Positions 1,033-26,865 of a stretch of DNA of 26,976 nt are shown one piece after another. Location: positions 1 through 26,976 of the forward strand of contig JBKJLC010000221.1 of assembly GCA_046597055.1 (NCBI GenBank). The letters run 5' to 3'. The notes beneath the pieces were generated by a model. That model worked only from the letters and a program-made list of their open reading frames with translations. It was not told the DNA's origin and searched no databases. Source of the stretch: Kofleriaceae bacterium (GTDB lineage: Bacteria > Myxococcota_A > Polyangia > Haliangiales > Haliangiaceae). The number at the start of each line of letters is the position of its first letter. Position 1 is the stretch's first letter. Position numbers and translations under genes: made by a program.

Positions 1033-2094
1033 ATGCGGTGGTCCGTGATCCTCGCCGGCGGTAGCGGCACCCGGCTGTGGCCGGCCAGCCGCCAGGGCCG
1101 CCCCAAGCAATTCCTCGCGCTCGCCGACGGCCGGTCCTTGCTGGCCGCGACCGCCGGGCGGCTGCGCACGATCACCGACCGGCTGGTGATCGTCACCGCC
1201 GCGGCCCAGGGAGCGGCGTGCGCGACCGAGGTCCCGACCGCGACGATCATCGGCGAGCCGGTACCGCGCAACACCGCCGCCGCACTCGGGCTGGCGGCGG
1301 TCCACCTGATCCACGACGACGCCGCCGCGGTGCTGGGCGCGTTCCCGGCCGACCACCACATCGCCGACGAGGCCGGGTTCGCCGTGGTCGCGGAGCGGGC
1401 CTTCGCGGCGGCCAGCAAGGCCGACGTGATCTGCACGATCGGGATCACGCCGACCCACGCCGAGACCGGCTTTGGCTATCTCGAGCTCGGCGCGCCGCGC
1501 GACGACCTCGGCGAGCACGTCCAGCGCGTGGCCCGCTTCGTCGAGAAGCCCGACGCCGCGACCGCCGCGCGCTACCTCGCGGAGGGTCGCCACCTGTGGA
1601 ACGGCGGCATGTTCTTCACCCGCGCCGGCCACCTGCTCGCCGAGATCGATCGGCTGCTGCCGGCGACCGGCGCCGGCCTGCGCGAGATCGCGGCAGCGCT
1701 GCGCCAGGGTGACGACGCGGCCGCGCGGGCGACCGCCGCGGTGTATCCGCAGCTGGGCGCGATCTCGATCGACCACGGCGTGATGGAGCGGACCCGCGAG
1801 GTCGTCGCGGTGCCGGGCCAGTTCGGCTGGAGCGACGTCGGCTCGTGGCAGGCGATCGCCAGCCTGCGTGCCGGCGACGTCCACGGCAACGCGGCGCTCG
1901 GCGAGCAGGTCGTGGTCGACGGCGCCGGGAACCTGACCATGACCGACGTCGGCGTGATCGCGATCGTCGGCGTGTCGGGCCTGGCGGTCGTGCGCGACGG
2001 CGACGCGGTGCTGGTGATCCCGCTGGAGCGGGCCCAGGACACCCGCGCGGTCGTGACCGCGCTGGCCAGCACGGGCCGCGAGCGCTACCTGTGA
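1033..2094 (+). CDS. manC: Mannose-1-phosphate guanylyltransferase (no C-terminal PMI/cupin domain)
   Basis: Motifs VILAGGSGTRLWPASR..PKQF, EPVPRNTA, PADH, RFVEKP, WNGGMF, SIDHGVME and WSDVGSW. 353 aa. Confidence 0.93.
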   Translation: MRWSVILAGGSGTRLWPASRQGRPKQFLALADGRSLLAATAGRLRTITDRLVIVTAAAQGAACATEVPTATIIGEPVPRNTAAALGLAAVHLIHDDAAAVLGAFPADHHIADEAGFAVVAERAFAAASKADVICTIGITPTHAETGFGYLELGAPRDDLGEHVQRVARFVEKPDAATAARYLAEGRHLWNGGMFFTRAGHLLAEIDRLLPATGAGLREIAAALRQGDDAAARATAAVYPQLGAISIDHGVMERTREVVAVPGQFGWSDVGSWQAIASLRAGDVHGNAALGEQVVVDGAGNLTMTDVGVIAIVGVSGLAVVRDGDAVLVIPLERAQDTRAVVTALASTGRERYL

Positions 2095-2114
2095 AAGGCG
2101 CAGGACCCGAACCG

Positions 2115-3503
2115 ATGAACCCCCGCATCTTTCGCGAGTACGATATCCGCGGCGACGCCGCGCGCGATCTCGACGACGCCCTGTTCACCGCGATCGGCCG
2201 CGCTCATGCCGCGCAGGTCGCCGGCCGGGTCGGCCCGGACCGGCGGCCGCGCATCGCCCTCGGCCGCGACTGCCGGCTGACGTCGCCGCGGCTGCACGCC
2301 GCGTTCATCGCCGGCGCCCGCGGGTTCGTCGACGTCATCGACATCGGCGTGGTGCCGACCCCGCTGGTGTACTTCGCGGCGGCGACGCTCGGGGTCGACG
2401 GCGCCGCGATGATCACGGGCAGCCACAACCCGCCCGAGGACAACGGGGTGAAGCTGATGGTCGGTGGCGCGCCGCTGTACGGCGAGGGCATCACCGCGCT
2501 GCGCCGGTCGATCGAGGCGAGCGCAGCCGATCCGGCCCCGGCCATCGCCGGGACCGTCACCGCCCACGACCTCACCCCGGCCTACCTCGCGTACGCGACC
2601 GACCAGCTGCGGCTGGGCCCGCGCCGGTTCAAGATCGTGGTCGACGCCGGCAACGGCTCGGGCGGGCCGACCGCGGTCGCGCTGTACCAGCAGCTCGGCT
2701 TCGAGGTGGTCCCGCTGTACTGCGACATGGACGGCCGGTTCCCCAACCACCACCCCGATCCCACGCTGCCCGAGAACGTCGCCGACCTGCGCGCGGCGGT
2801 GGCAGCCCACGGCGCCGAGGTCGGGCTCGCGCTCGACGGCGACGCCGACCGGCTGGGTGCGGTCGACGGCGCCGGCCGCATCCTGTGGGGCGACCAGCTG
2901 ATGATCCTCCTCGGCAAGGCGGTGCTGGCCGAGGTGCCGGGCGCACGCTTCGTGGGCGAGGTGAAGTGCTCGCAGGCGATGTACGACGAGCTCACCCGCG
3001 CCGGCGGCCAGCCCGAGATGTGGAAGGTCGGCCACTCGCTGATCAAGGCGCGCATGAAGGAGACCGGCGCCGCGCTGGCCGGCGAGATGAGCGGGCACCT
3101 GTTCTTCGCGCACCGCTGGCTCGGCTTCGATGACGCGATCTACGCCGGTGCCCGCCTGCTCGAGCTCCTGACCCGCTCGGACCGGCCGCTGGCAGCACAT
3201 GCCGACGAGCTGCCGGTGATGGTGAACACGCCCGAGCTGCGGGTCGCCTGCGCCGACGAGCTCAAGTTCGACGTGGTCGCGCGGGTCACCACCCGCCTGC
3301 GGGCGCGCCCCGACGTGATCGGGCTGGTCGACATCGACGGCGTGCGGGCGCGCTTCGCCGATGGCTGGGGCCTGGTCCGCGCGTCGAACACCCAGGCCGC
3401 GCTGGTGGTGCGCTGCGAGGCGATCGACGCCGCGCGGCTGGCCGCGATTCGCGGGCTGATCGAGGACGAGATCGCGATCGCGACCCGGGAGGCACAGGCA
3501 TGA
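2115..3503 (+). CDS. manB: Phosphomannomutase/phosphoglucomutase (AlgC/ManB-like)
   Basis: IFREYDIRG N-terminus, catalytic ITGSHNP, metal-binding DGDADR, sugar-binding GEMSGH and RASNT. Start is ATG 2115, or GTG 2091 overlapping the manC stop; the ORF-track start at 1845 lies inside manC. Confidence 0.93.
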   Translation: MNPRIFREYDIRGDAARDLDDALFTAIGRAHAAQVAGRVGPDRRPRIALGRDCRLTSPRLHAAFIAGARGFVDVIDIGVVPTPLVYFAAATLGVDGAAMITGSHNPPEDNGVKLMVGGAPLYGEGITALRRSIEASAADPAPAIAGTVTAHDLTPAYLAYATDQLRLGPRRFKIVVDAGNGSGGPTAVALYQQLGFEVVPLYCDMDGRFPNHHPDPTLPENVADLRAAVAAHGAEVGLALDGDADRLGAVDGAGRILWGDQLMILLGKAVLAEVPGARFVGEVKCSQAMYDELTRAGGQPEMWKVGHSLIKARMKETGAALAGEMSGHLFFAHRWLGFDDAIYAGARLLELLTRSDRPLAAHADELPVMVNTPELRVACADELKFDVVARVTTRLRARPDVIGLVDIDGVRARFADGWGLVRASNTQAALVVRCEAIDAARLAAIRGLIEDEIAIATREAQA

Positions 3504-4534
3504 CGGCGCACGAGTGGGTGGTCGGGGTCGACCTGGGCGGGACCAACCTGCGGGTCGCGGCGTTTCATCAGCTGGCGGTCCACGCGGCGCAGGCGCGGCG
3601 CGAGCGCCGCTCGGTCGTGCCCGAGCCGACCGCGGTGGTGCGCCATCGGGTCGGCGACGACCGCCGACCCGAGGCCATCGTCGAGGCGATCGCCGTCGCG
3701 GTCGAGGACGTGCTTGCCCAGGTCGGCGTGACGCCGGCGATGGTGGTGCCGGTCGGCGTCGGCATCGCGGCGATGCTGCGCGATCGGAAGGGCACCGTCG
3801 CCAACTCGCCGCACCTGCGCTGGCGCGACGTCGGGTTCGGGCCGATGCTGGCGGCCCGGCTGGGCCCGACCCGCGCGATCGGCGTGTACAACGACGTCAA
3901 CGCGATCGCCTACGGCGAGTTCGGGCTGGGCGCCGCCGCCGGCGCCTCCGACGTGCTGACCGTGTATGTGGGGACCGGCATCGGCGGTGGCCTGATCGTC
4001 AACGGCCAGCTCGCCGACGGCTACACCAACGCGGCCGGCGAGATCGGCCACGTCAAGGTCGCCTGGGGCGACGACGCCGCGCCGTGCGCGTGCGGCGGCC
4101 GTGGCTGCGTCGAGGCCTACGTCGGCGGCGTGTACGTGCAGGCGCGCGCGCGCGCCGAGCTGGCGGCCAGCGATCGCAGCTCGCGGGCGCTCGCGCTCGC
4201 CGGCGGCGATCCGCACGCGGTGACGCCCGGCCACGTCGACGAGGCGGCGGCCGAAGGCGACCCGTGGGCGCTCGCGCTGTGGACCGAGCTGGCGCCGCTG
4301 CTGGCGGTCGCGCTGGGCAACGCCATCACGCTGCTCAACCCCGAGCGGGTCGTGCTCGGCGGCGGCATGCTCGGCCGGACCCCGACGCTGAAGGCGCAGA
4401 CCCTGGTCGCGCTCACCTTGGTGACCCCGACCGCCCTGCTCGACCCGGTCGAGATCGTCGACGCCGTCCTCGGCGACGACGCCGGCCTGATCGGCGCCGC
4501 GCTGCTCGCCAGCCACGGCGTCGCGATGCTGTAG
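3500..4534 (+). CDS. ROK-family sugar kinase (glucokinase-like)
   Basis: GVDLGGT, NDVNAIAYGE, GTGIGGG, GEIGH and Zn-binding CACGGRGCVE. No N-terminal HTH. ATGA overlap with the mutase stop. Confidence 0.9.
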   Translation: MTAHEWVVGVDLGGTNLRVAAFHQLAVHAAQARRERRSVVPEPTAVVRHRVGDDRRPEAIVEAIAVAVEDVLAQVGVTPAMVVPVGVGIAAMLRDRKGTVANSPHLRWRDVGFGPMLAARLGPTRAIGVYNDVNAIAYGEFGLGAAAGASDVLTVYVGTGIGGGLIVNGQLADGYTNAAGEIGHVKVAWGDDAAPCACGGRGCVEAYVGGVYVQARARAELAASDRSSRALALAGGDPHAVTPGHVDEAAAEGDPWALALWTELAPLLAVALGNAITLLNPERVVLGGGMLGRTPTLKAQTLVALTLVTPTALLDPVEIVDAVLGDDAGLIGAALLASHGVAML

Positions 4535-4542
4535 CCGGCGCC

Positions 4543-4757
4543 AGGGCGTCCTTCGACCTCGGGCTGCGCTCGGAGGGTTGATCAGAGCAGCGTGTGTTCG
4601 GGCCCGTTCTTCCCCGGTCGCCCTTCGACTCCGCGCTTCGCGCTGCGCTCAGGGCCACCGGGAAGATGTGTGGGATCCAGAGGGCGCCCTTCCTTCGGTG
4701 TGGCGGGCGTCCTTCGACTTCGCCCGTCGCTCCGCGCCGGGCTGCGCGTGCTCAGGG
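4543..4757. repeat. Cluster of REP-like palindromic elements (CCTTCGAC...GCTCAGG family)
   Basis: Three copies between convergent genes: degenerate 4543-4570, 4609-4665 and 4681-4757. 4619-4655 is the exact reverse complement of 24875-24911 (37 bp). 4681-4747 matches 24906-24972 at 63 of 67 positions. Confidence 0.85.
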
Positions 4758-5177
4758 CTCGAGGGCGAGCTGCTTGGCGATGTCGCCGACGGTGAGGGCG
4801 TCGTTGCCGGCCAGCACGTAGCGCAGGCGGCCGCGGCGGTCGAACACGCGCACGTGGGGCAGCGGGCCGACCTTGTGCTGACGCGCGACCGCGGTCTCGC
4901 CGTCGCCGATGTCGATCTTGCGGACCACCACGCCGGCGTCGCCGCGGATCGCGGTCAGCAGCCGCTCGTCGACGACCTTGCAGCCGGCGCACCACTCGGC
5001 CCAGAAGTCGACCACGGTGACGTGGCCGGCCACCAGGACCGACACGAGGTCGACCGGCTCCCCGGTCCGGTTGACCTGCACGACCTGCGCGGGCGGCGGG
5101 CCCGGCGGCGCGACCGGCTCGCGGGTGCCGCAGCCGATCAGCGCGATCGTCATCATCATCGCGCGTGCGTGCCTCAC
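4752..5177 (-). CDS. Thioredoxin-fold lipoprotein (WCAGC)
   Basis: VTVVDFWAEWCAGCK thioredoxin motif with a downstream cis-Pro-like LPHV. N-terminus MRHARAMMMTIALIG-C is a lipoprotein-like signal. GTG 5177 overlaps the upstream TGA (GTGA). 141 aa. Confidence 0.85.
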   Translation of the reverse strand: MRHARAMMMTIALIGCGTREPVAPPGPPPAQVVQVNRTGEPVDLVSVLVAGHVTVVDFWAEWCAGCKVVDERLLTAIRGDAGVVVRKIDIGDGETAVARQHKVGPLPHVRVFDRRGRLRYVLAGNDALTVGDIAKQLALEP

Positions 5178-6631
5178 GGCCGCCACTCTGCCACGATCGG
5201 CCGGCGCTCGGCGAGGGTGGCGGCGTCGAGGCCGGCCTCGACCAGCGGCGTGACCGTCAGCGCCGCGCCGTTGACCAGCTCGGTGGCGGTCAGCGCCGGG
5301 ATGCCGTTGCCGTCGATCGCGACCGTGCACAGCGCGAGCGCGTCGCCGGCCGGCGCCGGCGGCAGCCCGCCGATGCGGTAACGACCGAGCGCGCGCGGCG
5401 GCGTGGTGTCCTCCCACAGCTCGACCTCGAGCGCGTCCTGACCGACCCGGTGGGTCGGGATCACCCGCGCGGCCCGGGTCGGCACCACCGCGCCAGCGGC
5501 GATCAACGGCACCAGCCGATCACCGGCGCCCATCGAGATGCCATAGGTCACCACGTCGACCAGCAGCGCCGCCGGCTCGGCGACGAACATGCGCGCGGCG
5601 GCCGCACCGCCCAGCGCCACCGCGAATCCGACGTCGGCGGGCTGCCGCGGCGCGCGCGCCAGCACCTGGCCGAGGCGGCGGGCGATCGAGGTCACCCGGG
5701 CGCCGCCGCCCACGAGCACGACTTCGGCCAGGTCGTTCGCGGTGGTCCCGGCGGCCGTGAGCGCACGGGTGCACACGTCGTCGACCTTGCGCACGCGCGG
5801 CGCCGACCACAGCTCGACCTCGTCCTTGCGCGGGGCCCGCAGGCTGCGCGCGCCCGGGCTCGCGCCGGTCAGCGCCTCGGCGAACGCGGCCTCGGTGGCC
5901 GCCGCGGTCCCGACGTGTTCCTTGACCGCCCGCGCGGCCCGCCACAGGTGCGGCCAGTCGTGGTCGTCACGGGCGACGCCGCCGAGCTCGCGCGCCAGCT
6001 CGGTGGCGATCACCCCGTCGAGCGCGTCGCCGCCGAGCTCGACCGCGCTGGCGGTCGACAGCCGATCGACGGCGCCGCCGACCAGCTCGATCACCGAGGC
6101 GGTGAACGCAGTGGATCCGGCGTCGCACACGAGCCAGCGCGCGTCGGGCGGCGCCGGCAGCGCCAGCGCGGCCAGCACCGGCTCGCCGCACAGCCGCACC
6201 ATCGGGATGCCGGCGAGCAGCGCCGCGTCGCGCAGGACCCGGCGCTCGACCGCGCCCGCGTACACCGGCGCCGCGATCACCGCGGCGATCACCGGTCCGT
6301 GCTCGGCCTCGGCCGCCTGGATCGCGGCGCGCAAGAGCCATCCGACCAGCTCGGCCGGGGCCCGCGGCTGGCCGTCGACGATCGGGCACGCCAGCCCGGC
6401 CGGGCCCGCGATCGCCGCGCGATCACCCTGGCCAGCGGCGCGCCCCAGCCAGGCCCGCGGCTGGACCCGCTGGGCGAGCGGGAGCGCCCGCGCCGCCGCG
6501 CCGACCAGGACGGTGGCGCCGTCGAAGCCGACCCACGCCGGCAGGGTGGCGACCGCGACCGGTCGCTCCTCGACCAGCGCGGCGACCCGCAGCTGATCGT
6601 GGCCGAGATCGATGCCACACACGATCGTCAT
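5174..6631 (-). CDS. Divergent Hsp70/DnaK-like protein lacking the helical lid
   Basis: Recognisable but altered Hsp70 motifs: GIDLGHD, GEPVLAAL, VCDAGSTAFTAS, LGGDALD, VLVGGGARV, AVALGGA, linker LLVDVVTYGISM, SBD-beta LGRYRIGGLPPAPAG and IDGNGI. 485 aa. Confidence 0.85.
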   Translation of the reverse strand: MTIVCGIDLGHDQLRVAALVEERPVAVATLPAWVGFDGATVLVGAAARALPLAQRVQPRAWLGRAAGQGDRAAIAGPAGLACPIVDGQPRAPAELVGWLLRAAIQAAEAEHGPVIAAVIAAPVYAGAVERRVLRDAALLAGIPMVRLCGEPVLAALALPAPPDARWLVCDAGSTAFTASVIELVGGAVDRLSTASAVELGGDALDGVIATELARELGGVARDDHDWPHLWRAARAVKEHVGTAAATEAAFAEALTGASPGARSLRAPRKDEVELWSAPRVRKVDDVCTRALTAAGTTANDLAEVVLVGGGARVTSIARRLGQVLARAPRQPADVGFAVALGGAAAARMFVAEPAALLVDVVTYGISMGAGDRLVPLIAAGAVVPTRAARVIPTHRVGQDALEVELWEDTTPPRALGRYRIGGLPPAPAGDALALCTVAIDGNGIPALTATELVNGAALTVTPLVEAGLDAATLAERRPIVAEWRP

Positions 6632-7992
6632 CGGAACAGCCTCTGCATCGCCAGCACGGTCGGCGTGATCGCGCGGCGCACGGTGTCGAGCGCCTGCGCC
6701 GCCTCGGCCGAGGCCGGATCATGGGACAGCGCGGTCTCGAGCGCCGCGACCGCGGCCAGCCGGTCGTTGCGGCTGCACGCCGCCATCGCCATCGCGACGT
6801 GCTGGAGCCCGCGCAGCCGGCGATCGCCGGCGTACAGGTGGAGCGCGGCCTCGGCGATCTGCTGGGCGCTGCCGTGGTCGCCGACCCCGAGCCGCTCGCG
6901 GATCTGGCGCAAGAAGCGATCGCCGGGACCCGAGCGGGCCTGGGCCAGCGACTCGTCGAGCGCGATCGGCAAGACCCCGGCCGCGGTCGGCATCGCGAGG
7001 TCGTTGAACAGATCGCTCGGCGAGCCGAAGCGCACCGCGACCGGGGTCGCCAGCGGCGGCAGCGTCAGATCGTCCGAGGGCGGTCGCGGCGGGCCCGCGC
7101 CCACCGCCGGCAGCTCGACCCCGTCGGGCCCGGCCTCGCTTGCCGCCCGGTCCGGCGCCGCCGGCGCGAACCCGGCCGGCCGCACCACCACCGGCACCTC
7201 CCGCGAGGGCGCGGTCGGCAGCGGGCGCGCCGACACCAGGCCCTGGCGATCAACCACCGGCAAGCTGGCGTTCGACACCTCGAGCAGGACGTCGATCGCG
7301 GCGTCGATCGGCGGCGTGACCGCCTCGGCGAAGAACCCGGTGGCCTGGGCCAGATCGGCGAGGCCGACGTTCCAGCCGACCAGCGGCCGGACGGTCGCGG
7401 CGATCGACGCGCCCCGCCCACCGGCGACGACCTCGGCGCGGAGGCAGTCGTAGGCGCGGCCGACCAGCGCCATCGACGCCTCGGCGGCGGCGGTCAACGC
7501 CGGCGACGAGTACCGGGCGACCGCGTCGGGATGCTCGCGCCGCGCGATCGCGATCCAGGCGGCGCGCAGCTCGAGCGCCGACGGATCGCGCGGCACGCCG
7601 AGCAGCTCGTGGGCGCCCAGCTGGCGCATGCGGCGCAGATCGCCCTCGCGCGCCGCCAGCAGCCGGCGCTCGTCGTCGGCGGTGTCCTCGTCGAGGAGGT
7701 CGTGATCGCGCCCGGCTCGCACCATCGCCTCGAGCTGGGCCAGCAGCGACGCGGTCATCCCGAACAGCGTCACCTCGACCCGGCCGCCGTCGCCGGCCAC
7801 GCTGATGGTGCCGTCGATCGCGATCACGATCTGGCTCGGCAGCTCGAGCGCGAGCGTCACCGGGGTGCCGATCTCGGCGGCGAACGGGACCCGCATCACC
7901 ATCCGGCCGCTCTTGCGCAGCTTGCGCTGGTAGAACGACTCGACCTGGTCCCAGGTCGCGCAGCAGACGCGCAGCAACCGCGCGGCGCTCAT
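6628..7992 (-). CDS. J-domain protein with N-terminal PilZ-like domain and C-terminal TPR-like helices
   Basis: J domain HELLGVPRD...ARREHPD...VGRAYDCL (HPD at 7525-7533). The N-terminal beta-rich IGTPVTLALELPSQIVIAIDGTI is PilZ-like. The C-terminus ALETALSHDPASAEA is TPR-like. ATG 7992 overlaps the upstream TGA. 454 aa. Confidence 0.8.
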   Translation of the reverse strand: MSAARLLRVCCATWDQVESFYQRKLRKSGRMVMRVPFAAEIGTPVTLALELPSQIVIAIDGTISVAGDGGRVEVTLFGMTASLLAQLEAMVRAGRDHDLLDEDTADDERRLLAAREGDLRRMRQLGAHELLGVPRDPSALELRAAWIAIARREHPDAVARYSSPALTAAAEASMALVGRAYDCLRAEVVAGGRGASIAATVRPLVGWNVGLADLAQATGFFAEAVTPPIDAAIDVLLEVSNASLPVVDRQGLVSARPLPTAPSREVPVVVRPAGFAPAAPDRAASEAGPDGVELPAVGAGPPRPPSDDLTLPPLATPVAVRFGSPSDLFNDLAMPTAAGVLPIALDESLAQARSGPGDRFLRQIRERLGVGDHGSAQQIAEAALHLYAGDRRLRGLQHVAMAMAACSRNDRLAAVAALETALSHDPASAEAAQALDTVRRAITPTVLAMQRLFR

Positions 7993-10217
7993 CGTCCGCC
8001 TGCCGGCTGGGGCAGCAGCGTCACCGCCCGGTCGATCGTCTCCTTCTTCGGCGCCGCCGACAGCGGCAGCCGCGGATCGCCGCCCGCCCGCCACTCCTCG
8101 GCGGAGACCCGCACGAACTCCGGCAAGAAGCCGTCCTTGGCGACCTTGAGCTCGTAGTCGCGCCCGGCCTCGATGCCGGTCAGCGACATCGAGTTGGTCT
8201 GCCCGACCAGCAGCCAGACGGCGGCGCCGGCCGGCATGGTCACCGCGTGCAGGGTGCCCGAGCCCTCGGCCAGTCCGGCCAGGTCGCTCGCCGGCGGCGC
8301 GGCCGGCAACCCCGGCAGCGGCTTCGTCGGCGTGCCGGCCTGGAGCGTGACCTCGATCGCCGCGCGCCGCGCATCCTTGGGCCCGCTCCATTCGGCGCCG
8401 CCGACTCGCACGTCCTGCGCCACGTGGCCCTCGCGCTCGACCCGCAGCTCCCAGACGTTCTCGGTCGACAGCGGGATCGAGTCGAACGGCGTGCGCCCGA
8501 GCAGGAGCCAGACCGCGGCGCCATCGGGGGTCGATCGGATCGCGATGGTGCCCGGATCGGCCTGCTCGGCGCGCAGCCGGCGCTCGAGCACGGCCGCGGC
8601 CTCGGCCTTGGCGTCGCGATCGCGCGCCTCGCGGGCCTGGAGGTCCTGGCGCTCCTCGCCCTGCCGCAGGAGCGCGAGGACCAGCGCGGTCGCGCCGGCG
8701 GCCACGACCAGCAGGCCGATCCACGTCCACACCGGGCTGCGGCCGAGCCGCGGCGGGTCGAGCACCGCGACCTCCTCGGTCGCTGGCGCGGCGCGACGGA
8801 CCGGCGCGGGCCTGGGGGCCGCGGCCGGCGCGGGCGCGGCGGCCACCGGCTCGTCGTCGGCATCGGGGCGCGAGGTGGCCCGGGTGGCGGCGCCAGCCCG
8901 CGGCCGGGTCGCCTCGACCAGGCGCGACGGCGCGGTCGACAGCTCGGGCCGTCGCATCGGGCGCGGCGCCGAGCCCTCGCGGGTCATCGTGCCCGGTTCG
9001 TCCGGCTGCGGCGGTGGCAGCGGGGTGTGCTCCGGGTCGATCGCGTAGCTGCCGTCCACGACGTTGGTCGGCTCGCGATCGGACTCGAGCTCGATCAGCT
9101 CGGAGATCGGATCGCGCGCGGCCTGCCCGCCCGGCGCGTCGACCATGGTGTGCGGTCCGTCGATGCTGCCATCGCCGGTGTCCTCGAGCTCCGACAGGAT
9201 CGAGTCGAGTCCGCCCGTGCGCGACCGGGTCCGGGGTGGCGCCACCGCCATCACGTCGAGCCGGCGGGCGGCACCGGCGCTGCCCGCGCCCGGCTCGGAC
9301 CGGGGCCGGGTGACCTCGACCGAGCCGCCCAGGCTGGCCAGCAGATCCTCGGTGGCGGCGTCGAGGCTCTGCTCGACCGGCGCGCGCGGGCCGACGAAAC
9401 GCGCGACCTCGTCGGCGGTCGCGATCTCCCAGCGATCGTCGTCGATCGCCTCGGCGAAGCTCTCCTGCAGCGAGGTCGCGTCGCCGAACCGGCGGGCCAG
9501 ATCGGGGTCGAGCGCGCGCTGGACCAGGCGCTCGATCGCCGGGGTGGTGTGGAGCGAGCCGGGCGGCGCCGCGCCGGTCAGCAGCATGTACAGCAGCGCG
9601 CCGGCCGCGTAGACGTCGGAGGCCGGCCCCGGCGGCTCGCCCTGCGCCACCTCGGGCGGCAGGTAGCCCGCGAGCTCGGTCAGCGGCATGGCGACGGACC
9701 CGGCGGCCCCCGCGGTGGCTGCGGCGAGGCCGACCGCGAAGTCGGTCAGCCGCACCACGCCGTGCTGATCGATCAGCACGCTGCGCGGGTGGACCGCGCC
9801 GTGGACAACCCAGCCCGCGTGCGCGGTCGCCAGCGCATCGATCACCGAGCGCGCGATCGCGGCGGCGATCCGGGGCGGCGTCTTGCTGGCCTGGGTCCGC
9901 GGGTCGCTCAGCACCTCGGCCAGCGTGATCGCGCCGCTGACGCCCTCGGTCACGACGACCAGGTGGGCCCCGTCGCGGACCACCAGCAAGGTGGTGACCA
10001 CCGCAGGATGGCGAAGGGCGTCGACCACCGGGCCGGCCACGCGGCCGAGCGCGACTCCGAACGGCCCGGCCGCCGCCAGCCGCGGCGTGACGATCCGCAG
10101 GCGCACGTCGGTCCGGCCGTCACCGCTCGCCCGGTAAATCTCACCATAGATGTCCTGCCCGAGTCGCTCGCCGAGCGTGAAGCCGGCCAGCGCGCGGACA
10201 CCCGACGGGCGAACCAC
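7989..10217 (-). CDS. Membrane-anchored Ser/Thr kinase-like protein (pseudokinase) with C-terminal PEGA-like domains
   Basis: Hanks-type fold: FTLGERLG, LRHPAVV, VHGAVHPRSVLI, LTDFAVG, YLPPEV, SDVYAAGALLYMLLTG. Then a Pro/Asp-rich linker, a TM helix WTWIGLLVVAAGATALVLALL, and two PEGA-like units (IRSTPDGAAVWLLLGRTP; VTMPAGAAVWLLVGQT). The GTG 10217 start is inferred from the TATAGT box 7 nt upstream. Confidence 0.85.
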   Translation of the reverse strand: MVRPSGVRALAGFTLGERLGQDIYGEIYRASGDGRTDVRLRIVTPRLAAAGPFGVALGRVAGPVVDALRHPAVVTTLLVVRDGAHLVVVTEGVSGAITLAEVLSDPRTQASKTPPRIAAAIARSVIDALATAHAGWVVHGAVHPRSVLIDQHGVVRLTDFAVGLAAATAGAAGSVAMPLTELAGYLPPEVAQGEPPGPASDVYAAGALLYMLLTGAAPPGSLHTTPAIERLVQRALDPDLARRFGDATSLQESFAEAIDDDRWEIATADEVARFVGPRAPVEQSLDAATEDLLASLGGSVEVTRPRSEPGAGSAGAARRLDVMAVAPPRTRSRTGGLDSILSELEDTGDGSIDGPHTMVDAPGGQAARDPISELIELESDREPTNVVDGSYAIDPEHTPLPPPQPDEPGTMTREGSAPRPMRRPELSTAPSRLVEATRPRAGAATRATSRPDADDEPVAAAPAPAAAPRPAPVRRAAPATEEVAVLDPPRLGRSPVWTWIGLLVVAAGATALVLALLRQGEERQDLQAREARDRDAKAEAAAVLERRLRAEQADPGTIAIRSTPDGAAVWLLLGRTPFDSIPLSTENVWELRVEREGHVAQDVRVGGAEWSGPKDARRAAIEVTLQAGTPTKPLPGLPAAPPASDLAGLAEGSGTLHAVTMPAGAAVWLLVGQTNSMSLTGIEAGRDYELKVAKDGFLPEFVRVSAEEWRAGGDPRLPLSAAPKKETIDRAVTLLPQPAGGR

Positions 10218-10265
10218 GAGGGCGACTATATCGCACCCGGTGAACCGTGCTAAACGCGAGGCGCC
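10218..10265. promoter_or_regulatory. Compact divergent promoter region (pseudokinase operon / asnS)
   Basis: 48-bp gap. The minus strand has TATAGT (10230-10225) 7 nt before GTG 10217. The plus strand has TGCTAAACG (10248-10256) 9 nt before ATG 10266. Confidence 0.5.
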
Positions 10266-11662
<1,397 letters not shown>

Positions 11663-11663
<1 letters not shown>

Positions 11664-16148: not shown

Positions 16149-16217
16149 CCGGTCGCGCTTCCGCGCGCCGTGCCTCGGACACGGCGCGGATGGCGGTGTT
16201 ACGCTGCGCTCCGCCTC

Positions 16218-19200
16218 GTGAGTCAGCGCCACGACGACACCCCGACCCGGCCGACGCCCTTCGCGGTCGCCGACGTCGACGCGTTCCGCAAGGATCCTCG
16301 CGACGAGCGTCGCTTCGCCACGTTGCGCCAGGCGCTGCGCGACGGCGGCCAGGGCGCCGCGCTCGCCGACGTGTGCGAGCTGCGCGCGCCGTTCGAGCCC
16401 AACCCGACCCGGGCCGCCGAGATCTGGGCCGAGGCCGGCGAGGCCCGCGCGGTGCTCGGTCAGGTCACGCTGGCCGAACGCGATCTGCGCGCCGCGGTCG
16501 CGCTCGAGCCTGCCAACGAGCGGGCTTGCGCGCGGCTGGTCGAGATGTTCTTCACCGCCGGCAAGTTCGCCGAGGCCGGCGACATCCTCGAGGGCGAGCT
16601 GGCCGAGCTGGCCCGCCGCGCCGAGGCCCCAGCCCCAACGCCGATCCCGCGATCGGCCGCGAGCCCCAGCGACAAGGCCAGCCTGGTCCGCCGCGCGCAC
16701 CGCCACCGGATGGCGGCCCAGGTCTGGGACGAGCACCTGGGCCGGGTCGACCGCGCGCTCTACCACTGGCAGCAGGCGTGGCGGCTCGAGCCCGAGCGCA
16801 CCGACGCGCTGGCCGCGGCGCGCACGCTGTATGCGTCGCTCGGCGACGACGCGATGGTCGCCACCCTGTACCGCGCCGAGCTCGATGTGCTCGGCGACAA
16901 GGCGCCGCCGATCGGCCGGGCCCAGCTGTGGCTCGCGCTCGGCAAGATCGAGCTGCGGCGCGGCGATGCCGCGGCCGCGGCCGCCGCGCTCGAGCAGGCG
17001 CTGCGGCTGGACCCGGGCGCCGCCAGCGCGCGCGAGGTGCTGGCCGAGGTCTACGCGTCGCCGGCGCTGGCCGAGGCCAGCGAGGATCCTGGCGCCGGGG
17101 CCCGCAAGGCCGGCGCGATCTACATCGAGCTCGGCAAGGCCGCGCTCGGCCGCGGCGACCTCGAGCACGGCCTGATCTTCCTGCGCCGCGCGGTCGGCAT
17201 CGATCCGTTCGACCCGGGCGCGACCGCCGAGCTCGAGCAGGCGCTGCGCGCCGCTGGCAAGTGGGAGGAGCTCGAGCGGGTCCTGGCCCAGCGCATCTCG
17301 CTCACCGAGGACGAGGCCGAGCGGGTCGAGCTGCTCACCCGCAAGATCGAGCTGCACGAGCGCGAGCGACCCGACCGCGCCGCGCTGATCGCCGCGCTGG
17401 GCGAGCTGTCGCTGCACCAGCCGCCGCACGGCCCGGCCGCGACCCGGCTGCGCCAGCTCCTGCGCGAGGACCAGCGCTGGGCCGAGCTAGCCGCGCTGAT
17501 CGAGCGCGACCTCGCCGGCCATGCCGACGATCTCCAGGCCCAGGTCGCCGAGACCCTCGAGCTGGCCGCGCTCACCCGCGAGCACCTCGGCGAGAAGGAC
17601 CGCTCGGCCGAGCTGCTGCACCAGGCGTTGTCGCTGGATCCATCCAACGAGGACGCGCTGGCCCGCTACGTCGATCACTTCCGCGAGCGCCGCGACTTCC
17701 GCGGCCTGGCCGATCTGTACGAGTTCTCGCTCGAGAACGCGCGCGAGTCCGGCTCGCAGCCGGCCGATCTGGTCCGCCGCCTGGAGGAGATCGCGCAGAT
17801 CTGCGAGCTGCGCCTGGGCGACGTGCCGCGCGCACTCGACGCCTGGCGCCGCATCGAGGAGATCGAGCCGGGCAGCCCCAAGGCCCGCGAGGCGGTGCGC
17901 CGGCTGTCGGCGCGCGCCAAGATGTGGGAGCAGCTGGTCGCGGTGCTCGACGGCGAGGCCCAGGCCGCGGCGTCGTCGAGCGAACGGGCCGGCACCCTGC
18001 GCCGGATCGCCCAGACCTACCGCGAGCGCCAGGTCGAGCCGCGCCGCGCGATCGCGCTGTACGAGGAGGTCATCGAGCTCAGCCCCAATGACGACGGCGC
18101 GCTCAAGGCGCTAGCCGAGCTGTACGAGCGCGAGAACGACGACACCGGGCTGGCCCGCACGCTGCGTCGCCAGCTCGAGCTCGACAACCGCCGGCTCGCC
18201 GCCGAGATGGCCGCCGCCGGCAAGCCCGCGACCGCCGCCCGCGAGTGGCCGGTCGGCAAGCGGGTCGAGCGCCTGACCGTGCTGCGCCGCCTCGGCGGCA
18301 TGTGCGAGCACCGCCTGGCCGACGCCGACGGCGTGGTGTTCGCGTGCGGCGGCATCCTCGAGATCCTGCCCGGCGACCGCGACGCGCTCGACCGCATGGA
18401 GCGGGTGCTCGAGCAGGCCGGCGATCTCGAGCGGCTCGAGCAGACGCTCGAGTACCACGCGGCCTCGGCGACCGGCCCGGCCGAGCGGGCCCGGGTCCAC
18501 CGCCGCCTGGCCAAGATGGCGGCCGACGCCGGCCACGACACCCGTGCGCTCGAGCGCTGGGAGCAGGCGCTCAAAGCGGCGCCGACCGACGAGGAGATCC
18601 TCGCCGCGGTCGCCGATCTGTACGAGAAGGCCCACCGGTTCGGCGAGCTGGCCAGCGCGCTCGAGCGGCTCGACGCGGTTCGCTACCCGTCGACCACCGC
18701 GCCGCCGGCGCCCGGCTCGGCCCCGGCTGCGTTGCGCGCCCGCGATCTCACCCGCTACGCCCGCATCGTCGACGACAAGCTCGGCGACGGCCAGCGCGCG
18801 ATCAAGGCATGGGAGCGGCTGCGCGACGCAACCCCGCGCGACCGCGCGGCGCTCGACGCGCTGGCCCGCCTGTACCGCGGCGCGGCCCGCTACCGCGAGC
18901 TGGCTGAGCTGCTCGCGGTCCACGTCGAGGTGTTCGCGGTCGATGACGTGGCCCGCGCCACCGCCGCCGCCCGCGAGCGCGCGACCGTGCTCGCCGAGCG
19001 GCTGGGCGCGACCGAGGACGCGATCCGCCAGCTCGAGCGGCTGGTCGCCGAGCTCGACCCGACCGACCTCGACGCCCACACCATGCTGCGCCGCCTGCAC
19101 GAGGTGCGCGGCGACTACCAGGCCGCGGTCAAGGTCGCCGAGCGCGAGCTGTACCTGGTCGCCGAGCCGGCCGCCAAGATCGTGCGCGCCCTCGAGATCG

Positions 19201-22200
19201 GCGTGGTCTGTCGCGATCGCCTCGGCGATCCGGCGCGCGCGCTGCAGGCCTACGAGCGCGTGCTCGCGATCGATCCGCACCACGACGAGGCGCTGGCCGC
19301 CGCCGCCGATCTGCACGAGCGGCTCGGCGACTTCAGGAGCGCGATCCGGGTGCTCGAGCGCCGGATGACGCGCATCGAGGACGTCCGCCACAAGAAGGCG
19401 CTGCTGGCGCGGCTGGCCACGCTCACCGCCGAGAAGCTCGGCGACCAGAAGGCCGGCTTCAGGTACTGGCGCCGGGCCCACGACGAGGCGCCCGACGCGA
19501 GCACGCTGGCCGAGCTCAAGCGCGCCGCCGAGGCCTACGGGCTGTGGCGCGAGCTGGCCGAGGTGTGGAGCGACGAGCGCAGTCGCCTGCTCACAGCCGG
19601 GGGTGGCGGCGTGCCGTCCGACCTCGACGCCTACGTCGGCGCCAGCCGCGAGCTCGCCAGCGTGTGCGAGCGGCGGCTGTCGGACCGGCCGCGCGCGATG
19701 ACCGCGCTGCACGAGGCGCTCGCGGTCGCGCCGCGCGACGCCGCGCTCCTGGCCGAGGCCGAGCGGCTGGCCGCCGAGGGCGATCAGCGGCCGCTGTGGA
19801 AGCAGCTCACCGACGGCTACGACCTGGCGCTGCGAGCGGCACCGGCGGCGGCCCGGGTCGAGCTGCACCAGAAGAAGGGCCGCGTGCTCGACGAGCGGCT
19901 GGGCGAGCCCAAGCCGGCCGCGGCCGAGCTGCTCGCGGCGTTCGCGTGGGCACCCGATCGCGATGACCTGCGCCAGAGCCTGTACAAGCTCGCCGAGAAG
20001 AACCGCACCTGGGGTGACGTGATCGCGGTCGAGACCGCGCTGGCCGAGCGCGCCGACGGCGCCGACCGGCTGGCCGCGCTGCGCCGTCGCGCCCAGGTCA
20101 TCGAGGAGCACCTGAAGGACCTGCCGCGGGCGTTCCGCGGTCACCTGGTCGGGTTCCTGCTCGCGCCCGAGGACGCCGACACCCTCGCTCATCTGTGGCG
20201 GCTGGCGCGCGCGATCGGCCGCTACCGCGAGGCGGACCGGACCCCCAAACCCGAGGCCGCGCCGGCGATCATCCACGACGGACGCGGTGACGGACGCGGT
20301 GACGGACGCGGTGGCGACGGCTCGCCGCTCGGGCGCGCCGGGTTGTTCGCGGCCCCGGCCGCGCCGGCGGTCGCCGCGGCGCCAGCGGGCACCGGACGTC
20401 ACCAGCGCCGGGCGTCGACCGAGGAGCTCGGCGAGCACGACCTGCGTCGCGGGCGCACGACCCGGCCGTCAGGCGTTTCCGACGACGACGTGCCGAGCGA
20501 CGAGGACCTCGCGGTCGGCGACTCGACCCAGCCGATCGACCTCGACGAGCTGCTGCCACACGCCGGCCAGACCGGGCCGCAGCCGATCGTGGCGCCGGCG
20601 CCCGTGACCATCGGCTCGACCCGCCCCGAGCGCAACGACCGCACGATGGAGCTCGACATCGGCGACCTGGCGCCGGCGACCGGGCTCACGCGGACCGGCC
20701 GCACGCCCGGCGGGCTGCCCGGGCTGCCCGGGGTGTTCACGCGCACCAAGCTGCCGCCGCCGCCGCCCAAGGCGCCCCGGATCGAGCCCCGCGCGGGCGG
20801 ACCCACCAGCACGACCATGCCGGCGCCGGTCCCGCGCAAGGCGCAGGCGACCGTGCGTCGCCCGCCGCTGCCGCAGCTGCCTGTGCGTGCGTACGAGTCG
20901 CCGTGGGAAGAGCTCGCGGCCGCGTACGAGTCGCTGCCCGCGGTCGATCCCGGCGCGCGCACGCGCTGGCTCTACCGCGCCGCCGACGCCTGGGAGAACG
21001 GCGCCCACGACATCCCGCGCGCGTTCGACACCCTGGCCCGCGCGCTCGGCAAGGCCGGCGCCGAGCCCGGCGGGGTCGGCGAGGCCCGCGCCCGCCTGCA
21101 CCGCCTCGCCGCGGATCACGAAGGCTGGGATCGCCTGGCCGAGCTCTACGAGTCGCTGGCCGAGGAGTCACACACCGCCGAAACCGCGGCCGACCTGCTG
21201 CTCGAGGTCGCCGCGATCCGCGAGCGCCAAGGCCACGCGAGCAAGGCCGAGGCCCAGTATCGCCGCATCCTCGGCATGCGGCCCGACGACGGCAACGCGC
21301 GCGGCCGGCTCGAGGCCCTGTACCGCAGCGGTGGGCGCTGGGTCGAGCTGGCCGCCTCGCTCGAGGAGCGCACCGATCCCCGGCTGGGCTCGGCCGCGCC
21401 CGACACCGAGCGGCCGGCGCTGCTGCGCGAGCTGGCGTCGATCTACGTCGACCACCTCGGCCATCCCCACGACGGCATCGACACCCTCGAGCGGCTGCGC
21501 CAGCTGGCGCCGACCGACGTCGGCGTGCTGCGCGATCTCGGCGGGCTCTACGCGCGGGTCGGGCGCTGGTCGAAGGTGATCGAGACCCACGCGCGCATCG
21601 GCGACATCGCCGAGGGCACCCCCGAGGCGCGCGAGGCCATGCGCAAGGTCGCCGTGATCTACGAGGCCGAGCTCGAGCTGCCCGAGCGCGCGATCGACAC
21701 CTACCAGAACCTGGTCGGGCAGTGGCCCGACGACGTCGACGCCTACGCCGCGCTCGATCGGCTGTGCGAGGCGCAGGCGCGCTGGCCCGACCTGGTCGAG
21801 ATCCTGCGCCGCCGCGCCGCGCTGGCCCGCGCGCCCGAGGACCGCGCGCACCTGCTGGCCCGCCGCGCCGGGATCCAGATGGACTGGCTGGGCGCGCCCG
21901 AGGAGGCCGCGACCGCGCTCCGCCACGCGCGGACCATCCTCCCCGACGACGCCGATCTGGCCGATCGACTGGTGACCGCGCTGGTCGCGGCGGCCCGCCA
22001 TCGCGAGGCGGCCGCGGTGCTCGAGGGCCGCATCGGCGCCGCCGCCGAGCGCGGGACCGGCGCCGGCGATCTCGCCGCGCTGCTGATCCGCCTGGCCCAG
22101 GTCCGCGCCGACGGCCTGGGCGATCCAGCCGGGGCCCGCGCCGCGCTCGACCGCGCGATCGCGCTGGTCCCCGATCACCCGACCGCGCTCGCCTCGCTCG

Positions 22201-24813: not shown

Positions 24814-25042
24814 CCCCGTTCACCCTGAGACGGTTGATCAAATAGCCTCGGGCCGGCCGAGCTCACCCCGGTTCGCCCTGAGCGCAGCGCGAAGCGCGGA
24901 GTCGAAGGGCGCCCTTCCTCCGATCTGGAGGGCGTCCTTCGACTTCGCCCGTCGCTCCGCGCCGGGCTGCGCTCAGGACGAACGGGGAGAACCGCAGTCG
25001 CGGCGCCATGCTGGCCAACCGCTCAGGACGAACGGGGTGAGC
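24814..25042. repeat. Second REP-like palindrome cluster
   Basis: Inverted pair GCCCTGAGC...GTCGAAGGG (24875-24909) and GTCCTTCGAC...GCTCAGGACGAACGGGG (24934-24987). Extra half-sites at 24814-24829 and 25021-25042. Shares long blocks with 4543-4757. Confidence 0.85.
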
Positions 25043-25057: not shown

Positions 25058-25756
25058 CTACCCGCCGGCCAGCCGGCGGCGTAGCTCGGGCAGCGAGCGC
25101 CGGCTGATCCGCGCGCGCTGGCCGTCGTCGAGCTCGACCGTGCCACCGTCGCCAGCCTCGTGGACGGCGCGCACCCGGCCGAGCTGGATCAGCTCGCCGC
25201 GGTGGACGCGCACGAAGCCCCAGGGCGCCAGCCGATCGGCCAGCGCGGCCAGCGCCTCGTCGAGCAGGTGCTCGACGCCGTCGACGACGAACGCGGTGTA
25301 CTTCTGCTCCGACCAGAACCGGGTGATCGCGGTCGCCGGGTAGACGTGGACCCGATCGCCCTGGCGCGCCATCATCCGCGGCGGCGCGGCCGGCGCAGCG
25401 GCCAGGCGGGCCCGGGCCCGGTCGAGCGCGCGGGCCAGCTTGGCGAGGCCGACCGGCTTGAGCAGGTAGTCGATCGCCGACGCGTCGAAGGCGTCGACCG
25501 CGTGCTCGGCGTGCGCAGTCGTGAACACCACCGCCGGGCGCGCCTCGAGCAGCCGCGCCAGCGCCAGCCCGTCGGTGCCGGGCATCCGGATGTCGAGCAG
25601 CACGACATCGGGATCGAGCCGCCCGATCGCGAGCAGCGCCTCGTCGGCATCGCCGGCCTCACCGACCACCTCGGCGTCGCCCAGCTCGGCGACCAGCCGC
25701 GCCAGCCGCCGCCGCGCCGGCGGCTCGTCGTCGACGATCAGCACGCGCAGGGTCAC
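25058..25756 (-). CDS. LytTR-family response regulator
   Basis: REC domain LIVDDEPPARRRL, LLDIRMPGTDG, FTTAH and DYLLKP; LytTR domain FVRVHRGELI...ISRR. GTG 25756 overlaps the kinase TGA. 232 aa. Confidence 0.93.
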   Translation of the reverse strand: MTLRVLIVDDEPPARRRLARLVAELGDAEVVGEAGDADEALLAIGRLDPDVVLLDIRMPGTDGLALARLLEARPAVVFTTAHAEHAVDAFDASAIDYLLKPVGLAKLARALDRARARLAAAPAAPPRMMARQGDRVHVYPATAITRFWSEQKYTAFVVDGVEHLLDEALAALADRLAPWGFVRVHRGELIQLGRVRAVHEAGDGGTVELDDGQRARISRRSLPELRRRLAGG

Positions 25757-26865
25757 GTCGCCGGCCCCGCGGGCATGGTGATCGCGGCGCGCCAGCCCGC
25801 GGGCGGCGCCGGCCCGACCTCGAGCCGGCCGTGCGCGCCGAAACCCAGCGCCAGCCGCGCCGCCAGATCGGCCAGCGCGGTGCCGGCGCCCGGTCGCGAC
25901 GGGCCCACCGGCGCGCCGCCGCCCTCGGCCGGCTGATCCTCGACCGCCAGCTCGATCGCGTCGCCGCGGCGGTGGATCGACACCACCACCGCGGTCGCGC
26001 CCTTGCGCCGCTGCGCGCCGTGCCGGACCGCGTTCTCGGCGAGCGGCTGCAGCGCCAGCGGCGGGATGGCCAGCCCGGTCAGATCCGCGTCGCACTCGAC
26101 CCGCCAGCGCAGCCGATCGCCGAGCCGGGCCGCCTCGACCGCGAGGTAGGCCTCGACTGCGGCCAGCTCGTCGGCCAGCGCGACCGTGGGCCGTCGGCCG
26201 GCGTCGAGCGCGTAGCGGAAGACGTCGGCGAGCCGCTCCAGCGTACGCTCGGCCAGCGCCGGATCTTCGGGGATGAGCGCCGCCACCGTGTTGAGGCTGT
26301 TGAACAAGAAGTGCGGATCGGTGCGCGCCTGCAGCGCGGCCAGCTCCGCGCGCAGCGCGGCCACGCGCGCTTGCGCGGCCCGGCGCTCGGACGCGAGCGC
26401 ACGCGCCTTCATCTCGTCGACCGCCACCTGCACCCCGATCACGACCGCCGACACGACGATCAGGGTCGACCACAGCCGGGTCCGGACCTCGGCGGCCGAA
26501 CTGCCCCACAGCAGCTCGAACGCGGCCCCCGCCAGGTAGGTCGCCGGCACCACCGCGATCGCGATCGCCGCCGCGTGGCCCGCGATGCGGACCGGCCAGC
26601 CCGGCTTGCGCACGATCAGGCGTGGCCAGAGCAGCCGGTACTGCAACTCGAACAGCCCGGCACCGCAGAGCATCACCACGAATGCGTGCTGGTAGCTCTC
26701 CCACAGCTCGGGCAGCACCGGCTCGTCGCTGCGCAGGCCGATCATCGCGATCGCGAGCGGGAGGATCAGGTAGATCAGCGCGTGCGCGGCCAGCTCGCGG
26801 CGCCAGCCACCCGGTTCACGGGTGAGGTGCCACAGGCCACGCCACGGGACCTCGCCAGTCGCCAT
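25753..26865 (-). CDS. LytS/YehU-family sensor histidine kinase
   Basis: N-terminal TM helices, H-box ALQARTDPHFLFNSLNTV, YLAVEAARLGDRL and LQPLAENAVRHG. ATG 26865 is preferred because GTG 26886 lies within intron domain VI. Confidence 0.92.
   Translation of the reverse strand: MATGEVPWRGLWHLTREPGGWRRELAAHALIYLILPLAIAMIGLRSDEPVLPELWESYQHAFVVMLCGAGLFELQYRLLWPRLIVRKPGWPVRIAGHAAAIAIAVVPATYLAGAAFELLWGSSAAEVRTRLWSTLIVVSAVVIGVQVAVDEMKARALASERRAAQARVAALRAELAALQARTDPHFLFNSLNTVAALIPEDPALAERTLERLADVFRYALDAGRRPTVALADELAAVEAYLAVEAARLGDRLRWRVECDADLTGLAIPPLALQPLAENAVRHGAQRRKGATAVVVSIHRRGDAIELAVEDQPAEGGGAPVGPSRPGAGTALADLAARLALGFGAHGRLEVGPAPPAGWRAAITMPAGPAT

Follow-up and report, generated by a model that had tools for sequence, protein, structure and literature searches.

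What is left for a J-domain protein to do when the Hsp70 encoded beside it appears to have lost the means to hydrolyse ATP? The question is raised by a four-gene operon on the minus strand of a stretch of DNA from a Kofleriaceae bacterium of the order Haliangiales (assembly GCA_046597055.1, contig JBKJLC010000221.1, positions 1 to 26,976; this whole stretch of 26,976 nucleotides is called the window here). The operon encodes a membrane pseudokinase, a co-chaperone with PilZ-like and J domains, a lidless Hsp70-like protein and a thioredoxin-fold lipoprotein, and a preliminary description, made from the letters of the window, had seen in it a possible trans-envelope signalling or remodelling module. 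We find that the operon is conserved within Haliangiales, that its Hsp70 has lost the ATPase residues in the genus of the window, and that the J protein next to it has kept its His-Pro-Asp (HPD) motif.

Loss of the ATPase residues from the Hsp70

The Hsp70-like protein matches the Pfam HSP70 family (7e-43) and is modelled with high scores (predicted local distance difference test (pLDDT) 94; predicted TM-score (pTM) 0.91). The helical lid is absent: a single 12-residue helix follows the beta part of the substrate-binding domain (SBD), and then the protein stops. The intact orthologues (~515 amino acids) are likewise lidless. We scored ten key residues of the nucleotide-binding domain (NBD), leaving out four copies truncated by contig ends and using the residue numbering of Escherichia coli DnaK, which is partly confirmed in the literature (PMC8215388). 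The score was 9-10 in all 50 full-length copies outside the genus of the window and 0-5 in all 11 loci of the genus. The window copy keeps five of the ten (the equivalents of D8, E171, D194, K270 and R345) and has lost those of T11, K70, G197, T199 and D201, so that both phosphate loops and the catalytic lysine are gone. It falls outside the canonical Hsp70s as defined by the phosphate-1 and phosphate-2 loops and K70, E171, T199 and D201, and five copies in the genus also lack about 100 amino acids of lobe II. We predict with high confidence that the Hsp70 of this genus does not hydrolyse ATP and, because this chemistry has been lost across the genus, that the J domain would be unable to drive an ordinary cycle on it. 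The preliminary description had called the protein a private lidless Hsp70 paralogue; a lidless paralogue it is, but the loss of its ATPase chemistry in this genus had been overlooked.

Among the 48 intact copies 139 alignment columns other than Gly, Ala or Pro are conserved, and 15 of these persist in 11 or more of 12 genus copies. The 15 include the equivalents of R151, R167, D393 and D481, and that of P419 is present in 12/12. In published work, which here and below we cite from excerpts of the papers concerned, R167 and P419 are contacts of the HPD motif, and D481 and R167 form a docking clamp (PMC8215388). Four of eight interface positions are retained versus none of 12 nucleotide-site positions; the corresponding p of ~0.01 is descriptive only, the copies being kin and not independent. 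The genus clade also has invariant residues of its own, and the model of the window copy fits ATP-docked DnaK (4b9q/5nro) with a query TM-score (TMq) of 0.80 and undocked structures with 0.55-0.60.

Evolution of the Hsp70 in the genus

The genus Hsp70s form one clade, the stem of which carries 1.23 (NBD) and 1.11 (SBD) substitutions per site. The corresponding stems from the same loci carry 0.24 (kinase), 0.36 (J protein), 0.02 (thioredoxin) and 0.04 (PGM). One clade with so long a stem, against 0.02-0.36 for its neighbours, marks the change as specific to the Hsp70 and as a single event. Gene trees of the locus recover the same genus clade; in a quick Hsp70 tree this clade groups with genome G019, which may be long-branch attraction.

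The reading frame is open in 12 of 13 genus copies, at pairwise identities to the window copy of 41-70%. The ratio of nonsynonymous to synonymous substitution rates (dN/dS, omega) was estimated by an NG86-style count, which overestimates it at this G+C content of third codon positions (GC3). Over the Hsp70 domains of five genus pairs it was 0.07-0.22 (the closest pair), 0.19-0.38, 0.36-0.48, 0.47-0.59 and 0.40-0.80, and three outgroup pairs gave 0.02-0.15. The values indicate that the genus Hsp70 is under relaxed purifying selection. Loss of type IV pili was considered as the cause of the decay and rejected, pilM being present in 17/17 genus genomes; pilB-family matches also occur in all 17, and exceed the pilB cut-off in 14. 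In the genome of the window pilB lies on contig C280.

A second decay of the module is seen in G019 (locus L042, 5483-9234), where pilD directly precedes an HPD-less J protein and a strongly degenerate Hsp70.

The J protein

The model of the co-chaperone has three folded domains (pLDDT 77.5). Its N-terminal domain belongs to a family of which 19/31 members match TIGR02266 (best 1.4e-9), the window copy itself not among them, and 6/31 match PilZ. The top nine Foldseek rows for this domain are Xanthomonas PilZ proteins (best E 2.6e-3), and its best fold and PDB-profile matches are with the PilZ adaptor of PilB and FimX. The c-di-GMP motifs RxxxR and D/NxSxxG are absent from a 31-row alignment of the domain inspected by eye. 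The J domain carries HPD at residues 154-156 and matches the J fold of 6jmg (Z 9.1); the Pfam DnaJ match is below the cut-off (E 0.0026), and the helices are visible in the model. With a helical J fold and HPD the protein is a J-domain protein, as the preliminary description had proposed; it belongs to class C and has in addition a TPR-like domain for which a fold match was also obtained. No hydrophobic window of 1.9 or more, and hence no transmembrane (TM) segment, was found in it. All 56 J domains caught by pattern have the HPD motif and ten more show it by table; L126 is ambiguous. The J protein and the Hsp70 are probably cognate partners.

Distribution of the operon

A scan of genome contigs confirmed 172 stretches, and the counts below that are given over 74 loci refer to the best 74 of these 172. 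Their titles are Kofleriaceae, Haliangiales, or loosely labelled myxobacterial or deltaproteobacterial metagenome-assembled genomes. The kinase gene is followed by the J gene in 69/74 loci and by the Hsp70 gene in 65/74, every miss being a contig end. The J and Hsp70 genes overlap by 4 nucleotides in 38/58 loci, the spacing between kinase and J genes is 20 nucleotides or less in 59/66, and the thioredoxin gene is present downstream in 50 of the 58 loci with enough contig and missing in eight. Upstream of the kinase stands pilD in 59 loci, asnS in 14 (the genus of the window) and a contig end in one; outside that genus 59 of 60 loci have pilD immediately before the kinase gene. A manC or PGM gene lies near the operon in 48/74 loci. 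In some genera (loci L040, 10688-11338, and L041, 5047-5787) an extra uncharacterised gene of ~200-250 amino acids lies between pilD and the kinase.

In deeper branches (3/74 loci) a second intact Hsp70 gene and a small J-TPR gene are found between the kinase and J genes. The small gene between the two Hsp70s of these loci was considered as a GrpE and rejected, as it encodes the J-TPR protein. The full module was not found outside Haliangiales in the 301 genomes of the phylum that were scanned, and the family of the N-terminal domain of the J protein occurs in seven of the 301, all in two Haliangiales families. The conservation of the neighbourhood across Myxococcota by which the module was to be judged is thus borne out for Haliangiales and not for the rest of the phylum. 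In the genus of the window the J orthologue is found in 13 of 16 other genomes, and pieces of the Hsp70 orthologue are also present in G007 and G008.

Transcription unit and flanking genes

The features of the locus are collected in Table 1. The four open reading frames have GC3 values of 0.94-0.98 throughout and overlap, in order, by ATGA, ATGA and GTGA (4 bp each), so that the coordinates and overlaps of the preliminary description are confirmed. So are its domain labels, with Pfam matches to Pkinase, PEGA, HSP70 and Thioredoxin and the weaker one to DnaJ described above, and its view of the genes as one transcription unit, there being a promoter and a gene order kept across related loci. 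The promoter, TTAGCA-17-TATAGT, is the sole promoter-like match in 4400-10400 (shuffle mean 0.0). In 63/74 related loci, and in all 13 genus loci displayed, the kinase start has a -10-like box 5-8 nucleotides ahead of it, and the 19 codons 5' of the kinase start have a GC3 of merely 0.63. The position of the promoter 7 nucleotides from the GTG, together with the -10 box in relatives, settles the kinase start codon at 10217. This suggests that the operon would be transcribed as a single leaderless unit from this promoter. Overlaps of 4 nucleotides are common in this genome (781 of 2486 co-oriented neighbour pairs, 31%, by crude gene calls), so three in succession are mild evidence alone, and it is the conservation of synteny rather than the overlaps that carries the evidence for an operon. 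Co-transcription with pilD was dropped as a requirement, since the operon has its own -10 box.

Table 1. Coordinates of the operon, its promoter and its flanking genes in the window
Feature	Position	Strand	Description
Single-pass Ser/Thr pseudokinase	10217-7989	-	742 aa: kinase fold aa ~8-300, Pro/acidic linker, TM aa 499-517, PEGA-like aa ~548-738
Remodelled catalytic loop HGAVHPRS	9780-9803	-	without catalytic Asp, Lys and Asn; beta3 Lys absent too
J protein (co-chaperone)	7992-6628	-	454 aa: PilZ-like aa 3-95, J aa ~105-190, disordered Pro-rich linker, TPR-like aa ~355-452
Lidless pseudo-Hsp70	6631-5174	-	485 aa: NBD, linker, SBD-beta, one helix
Thioredoxin-fold lipoprotein	5177-4752	-	141 aa: lipobox Cys16, CAGC at aa 63-66; accessory
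Sigma70-type promoter	10225-10253	-	-35 at 10253-10248, -10 at 10230-10225; 7 nt upstream of kinase GTG
asnS	10266-11663	+	divergent flank; occupies the place of pilD in other genera
manC, phosphomannomutase, ROK kinase	1033-4534	+	convergent flank, persistent neighbour

Between the ROK and thioredoxin genes (4536-4752) lies a dispersed repeat with 211 BLAST matches genome-wide in both orientations, one of them in the window at 24867-24990. Farther away the window encodes a 2877-residue protein consisting mostly of TPR repeats (16170-24803, plus strand) and a LytTR response regulator with a LytS-type histidine kinase (25058-26886, minus strand).

The membrane pseudokinase

The first protein of the operon matches Pkinase (3e-18) and PEGA (5e-5) in Pfam, and its nearest clusters in the ESM Atlas are PEGA (best 0.90). 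By hydropathy it has one TM segment, placing the kinase fold in the cytoplasm and the PEGA-like region in the periplasm. In all 75 aligned sequences, a set partly seeded on the catalytic-loop motif (one of three search seeds), the loop reads HG[AG][VLI]HP[RQ]S and the beta3 Lys is gone. None of the 75 carries the beta3 Lys, HRD Asp and loop Asn of a Hanks-type kinase, and the DFG Asp is retained in 71; the catalytic Asp is also absent from 26/26 kinases of loci found through the J protein. The dead receptor of the preliminary description is therefore a true pseudokinase, and a helix at residues 286-296 is near-invariant. The best paralogue of the kinase in the window's genome (G000), on contig C39 at ~59530-60430, likewise has a remodelled catalytic loop and is an apparent second pseudokinase.

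We put it at even odds that the pseudokinase anchors the J-Hsp70 pair at the inner membrane. A prediction of the complex between the J protein and kinase residues 1-400 gave a score of 0.00, which we count neither for nor against this. The pseudokinase is accessory to the pair: four of five tested genomes that keep the J-Hsp70 pair yielded no kinase in a search with its periplasmic domain (G019, G024, G043 and G044), among them the 8-contig genome G019, where the HPD motif and the Hsp70 have both decayed. Trans-envelope signalling through the kinase is at this stage conjectural.

Weaker homologues of the PEGA region occur in three other families of the class, joined to an apparent remnant of a kinase C-lobe and often located after hisF. 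In one genus of another family (8 loci) an Hsp70 and a small J gene lie near the PEGA homologue in 7/8 and PGM/manC in 8/8. The order in L136-L138, L144, L145 and L148-L150 is a long Hsp70, a small J gene, his genes and the PEGA membrane protein, convergent with PGM/manC, which suggests that the association of the PEGA protein with Hsp70/J and sugar-nucleotide genes may be old. Two distant homologues (L143, 7061-9484; L146, 7038-9491) have a kinase with an intact HRD fused before the TM segment and PEGA region, and L143 also has a degenerate kinase-like remnant between the kinase and the TM-PEGA part.

The thioredoxin

The thioredoxin (Pfam 8e-8) has both a CxxC motif and a lipobox Cys, in keeping with the thioredoxin lipoprotein first described. 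All 50 related copies have CxxC, and most also have a lipobox-like Cys near the N-terminus. Translation could begin at GTG 5177 or at an ATG at 5159-5153, the GTG giving a positively charged n-region before the lipobox. Its proposed role as redox partner of the receptor is not supported: cysteines are absent from the kinase and from all 22 aligned periplasmic domains. A disulfide substrate within the kinase is thereby ruled out. Because there is no Cys target there, the thioredoxin is best treated as a passenger, or as an envelope oxidoreductase for other substrates, and it is doubtful that it acts in the same pathway as the J-Hsp70 module.

Other Hsp70/J pairs in the genome

G000 encodes several other intact Hsp70s, on contigs C14, C32, C79, C193 and C279, and several pairs of a J protein with a lidless Hsp70. 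On contig C32 (5985-8569; L155) an intact lidless Hsp70 follows a J-TPR protein whose HPD reads HPA, and orthologues of this J protein across the family and order have HPA, HPN, HPH, HPS or HPT. A reciprocal loss of this HPD on the genus stem was considered and ruled out, the Asp being missing across family and order. On contig C79 (24100-27660; L156) a paralogous PilZ-like/J/TPR gene stands with an intact lidless Hsp70 and no kinase, an arrangement also present in other genera. The small protein after the C79 Hsp70 resembles a GbsR/MarR-type regulator.

Proposed role and alternative explanations

We propose that this is an operon of Kofleriaceae and Haliangiales in which the J protein targets the adjacent lidless Hsp70 to one client, and that in the genus of the window the Hsp70 has become an ATP-independent, J-bound adaptor, the HPD motif firing another Hsp70. 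We give this reading a probability of roughly 0.4. In most Kofleriaceae the J protein would deliver a specific client to its own Hsp70. In the genus of the window the Hsp70, unable to cycle, would persist as an ATP-independent partner of the J protein, and the HPD motif would need another Hsp70 because its own cannot cycle. This could be one of the intact Hsp70s of G000, for example the lidless one encoded on C32, where the Asp is absent from the accompanying J protein. The client could tentatively be the type IV pilus motor, or the link between pili and exopolysaccharide, reached through the PilZ-like domain. This is the most plausible client in view of the genes nearby (pilD and those for sugar nucleotides), the fold match to PilZ, and the precedents from Myxococcus xanthus and cyanobacteria.

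Several observations weigh against these proposals. As for the pilus link, pilD may be adjacent without functional reason, since the operon carries a promoter of its own; in G000 pilD is on another contig, having moved away in the genus although pilB and pilM were retained. The PilZ match is weak (E 2.6e-3, target TM-score (TMt) 0.62), TIGR02266-type domains are generic in myxobacteria, and single deletions of four PilZ-DnaK/DnaJ genes in M. xanthus are described as causing no defect in motility, exopolysaccharide or development (PMC8316039). As for the adaptor, there is no longer an equivalent of Q378, the L391 position varies, and in the window copy D481 is replaced by Asn. The docked state comes from a model whose alignment contained 30 intact relatives among 39 rows, and AlphaFold may have a general bias towards docked Hsp70s. 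The Hsp70 orthologue was not found in G001 or G013, both fragmented assemblies, and the kinase was not found in the four genomes named above. The decay is moreover one event on one stem, not one repeated independently.

The main rival explanation is slow erosion under relaxed selection, in which the Hsp70 became largely dispensable once the pilD context was lost, the J protein has turned to other Hsp70s, and the kinase and thioredoxin are simply carried along in the transcript. The SBD is as accelerated as the NBD on the genus stem, which fits plain relaxation of the whole protein. The lobe II deletions in five copies, the frameshifted copy in G002 and the parallel decay in G019, with its loss of HPD and kinase, point the same way, as does one pair in which the omega of the NBD lobes is 0.76-0.80 and that of the ROK/PGM controls 0.36-0.53. 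Set against erosion are the 12 of 13 open frames across a deep genus, the omega values of 0.07-0.38 in the two closest pairs, the invariant residues peculiar to the genus and the selective retention of the interface residues. We regard erosion as somewhat unlikely on balance.

The adaptor reading can be carried further, to a bacterial counterpart of the yeast Ssz1-Zuo1-Ssb system that would have evolved within this genus, with a docked, nucleotide-free pseudo-Hsp70 bound to its J partner on a pseudokinase scaffold and the J domain firing another lidless Hsp70 in trans to remodel PilB on a periplasmic cue; in this full form it is improbable. If the operon instead encodes a non-signalling chaperone dedicated to the quality control or assembly of a membrane or envelope client, in the style of HscC with DjlB/DjlC, the pseudokinase would be the client or a tether and the dead Hsp70 a holdase. 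Specialised Hsp70-J pairs have been proposed for membrane clients (PMC8215388), mutants of non-canonical M. xanthus Hsp70s have mild sporulation and oxidative phenotypes (PMC8265645), and G000 has its several J and lidless Hsp70 pairs. The J protein here is nevertheless soluble, with PilZ-like and TPR adaptor domains and neither TM nor TerB, and the conserved remodelled loop and near-invariant helix of the pseudokinase are what a binding platform would show, so that we consider such a role unlikely. Still less can be said for a c-di-GMP-regulated chaperone of the M. xanthus CsdK2 kind, in which the PilZ domain would be the sensor. M. xanthus does use PilZ-DnaK chaperones in cell death under heat stress (PMC10313047) and the N-terminal domain is PilZ-like, but all 31 sequences lack the binding motifs and the best structural matches include XC1028, whose title gives trivial c-di-GMP binding; this role is very improbable. 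An anti-phage or conflict system with a kinase-like sensor is about as remote. The kinase domain does match PADLOC kinase models such as PD-T4-6, but these matches cover the generic kinase fold only. The J protein, Hsp70 and thioredoxin match no PADLOC family (0 families for the three proteins, and thus no system-specific profile for the partner genes), the locus is stable among housekeeping genes, and its gene trees give the same genus clade.

If the Hsp70 is merely eroding, the finding reduces to an undescribed but ordinary lineage-specific chaperone operon. The locus offers a matched natural experiment, with 50 intact copies and a genus-wide ATPase-dead clade beside the same J and pseudokinase neighbours. 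It lets one ask which functions of an Hsp70 survive without ATP, and whether a non-hydrolysing Hsp70 adaptor of the eukaryotic kind arose independently in bacteria; with intact and dead versions in sister genera, the birth of a pseudochaperone becomes directly testable. Should the PilZ-like domain bind PilB, myxobacterial Hsp70s would gain a physical connection to pili and exopolysaccharide, to which they have long been linked without an established mechanism.

Relation to known systems

The preliminary description did not recognise the operon as a described system, and our literature search agrees: neither the operon nor a bacterial Hsp70 that is ATPase-dead and kept next to a J protein with intact HPD was described in what it returned, though supplements may list related M. 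xanthus architectures. The excerpted text of PMC10410713 mentions neither PilZ nor Myxo (0 occurrences), and none of 47 matches in a protein search has a characterised name. The components belong to known themes. Lidless or truncated DnaK derivatives are known in myxobacteria (PMC8265645, PMC13580251) and dedicated Hsp70-J pairs are known more widely (PMC8215388, PMC9239167); in a 2026 review the DnaK derivatives of bacteria are termed a largely unexplored 'dark matter', and the role of the 12-13 found in M. xanthus is posed as a question (PMC13580251).

Among bacterial systems, HscC with DjlB/DjlC of E. coli resembles the operon: its Hsp70 is short and specialised, comes with a J protein of its own and has no GrpE beside it (PMC8215388). 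It differs in that HscC has an active ATPase and a membrane J partner, whereas here the ATPase motifs are lost and the J protein, which lacks a TM segment, is built with PilZ-like and TPR domains. SglK/GrpS/SgmC and StkA of M. xanthus are Hsp70s in the control of pili and exopolysaccharide (PMC4319316; bioRxiv 10.64898/2026.08.28.747804). Like them, the Hsp70 here is a non-housekeeping myxobacterial protein, with a predicted dedicated J partner and a context of pilus and sugar genes; but SglK is a full DnaK with GrpE, and StkA, in the text excerpted, sits with StkB and StkC and no J protein or kinase. The fusion of a PilZ-type domain to a chaperone component is already known from the PilZ-DnaK (CsdK1/2) and PilZ-DnaJ proteins of M. 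xanthus (PMC10313047, PMC8316039); here, in contrast, PilZ-like, J and TPR domains are united in one protein, which lacks the c-di-GMP motifs and whose operon also encodes a pseudokinase and a dead Hsp70. Cyanobacterial DnaK1-DnaJ3 and DnaK1-PilB provide an example of a dedicated Hsp70-J pair at the type IV pilus motor with a polysaccharide output (PMC9239167, PMC13710413). DnaK1, however, works with GrpE, the excerpts describe no pseudokinase or PilZ adaptor for it, and the pilus link of the present operon is one of gene context. The Xanthomonas PilZ proteins XAC1133/XC1028 (PDB 3cnr, 4fou, 7lkm), which match the N-terminal domain best in structure and profile, are of the type that bridges FimX and PilB; they share 16-19% identity with it at weak E-values and stand alone, whereas the domain here is fused to a J domain.

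In arrangement the operon recalls the ribosome-associated complex (RAC) of yeast, in which Ssz1, a lidless non-hydrolysing Hsp70, is bound to Zuo1, whose J domain activates Ssb (PMC7083937). Judged from sequence, the same combination is present here: a lidless Hsp70 with a complete SBD-beta, predicted not to hydrolyse ATP, next to a J protein that has HPD and a Pro-rich segment, in a cell with other active Hsp70s; the heterodimer itself is predicted. The two systems nevertheless share homology only in their Hsp70 and J folds, and ribosome-binding domains are absent here. Ssz1, moreover, still binds ATP and has a detached linker, whereas the Hsp70 here has remodelled phosphate loops and a docked model, and segments of lobe II are missing from five of the genus copies. 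Set beside these systems, the operon is a lineage-restricted, undescribed version of the specialised J/Hsp70 theme, with a clean transition from an intact to a dead Hsp70.

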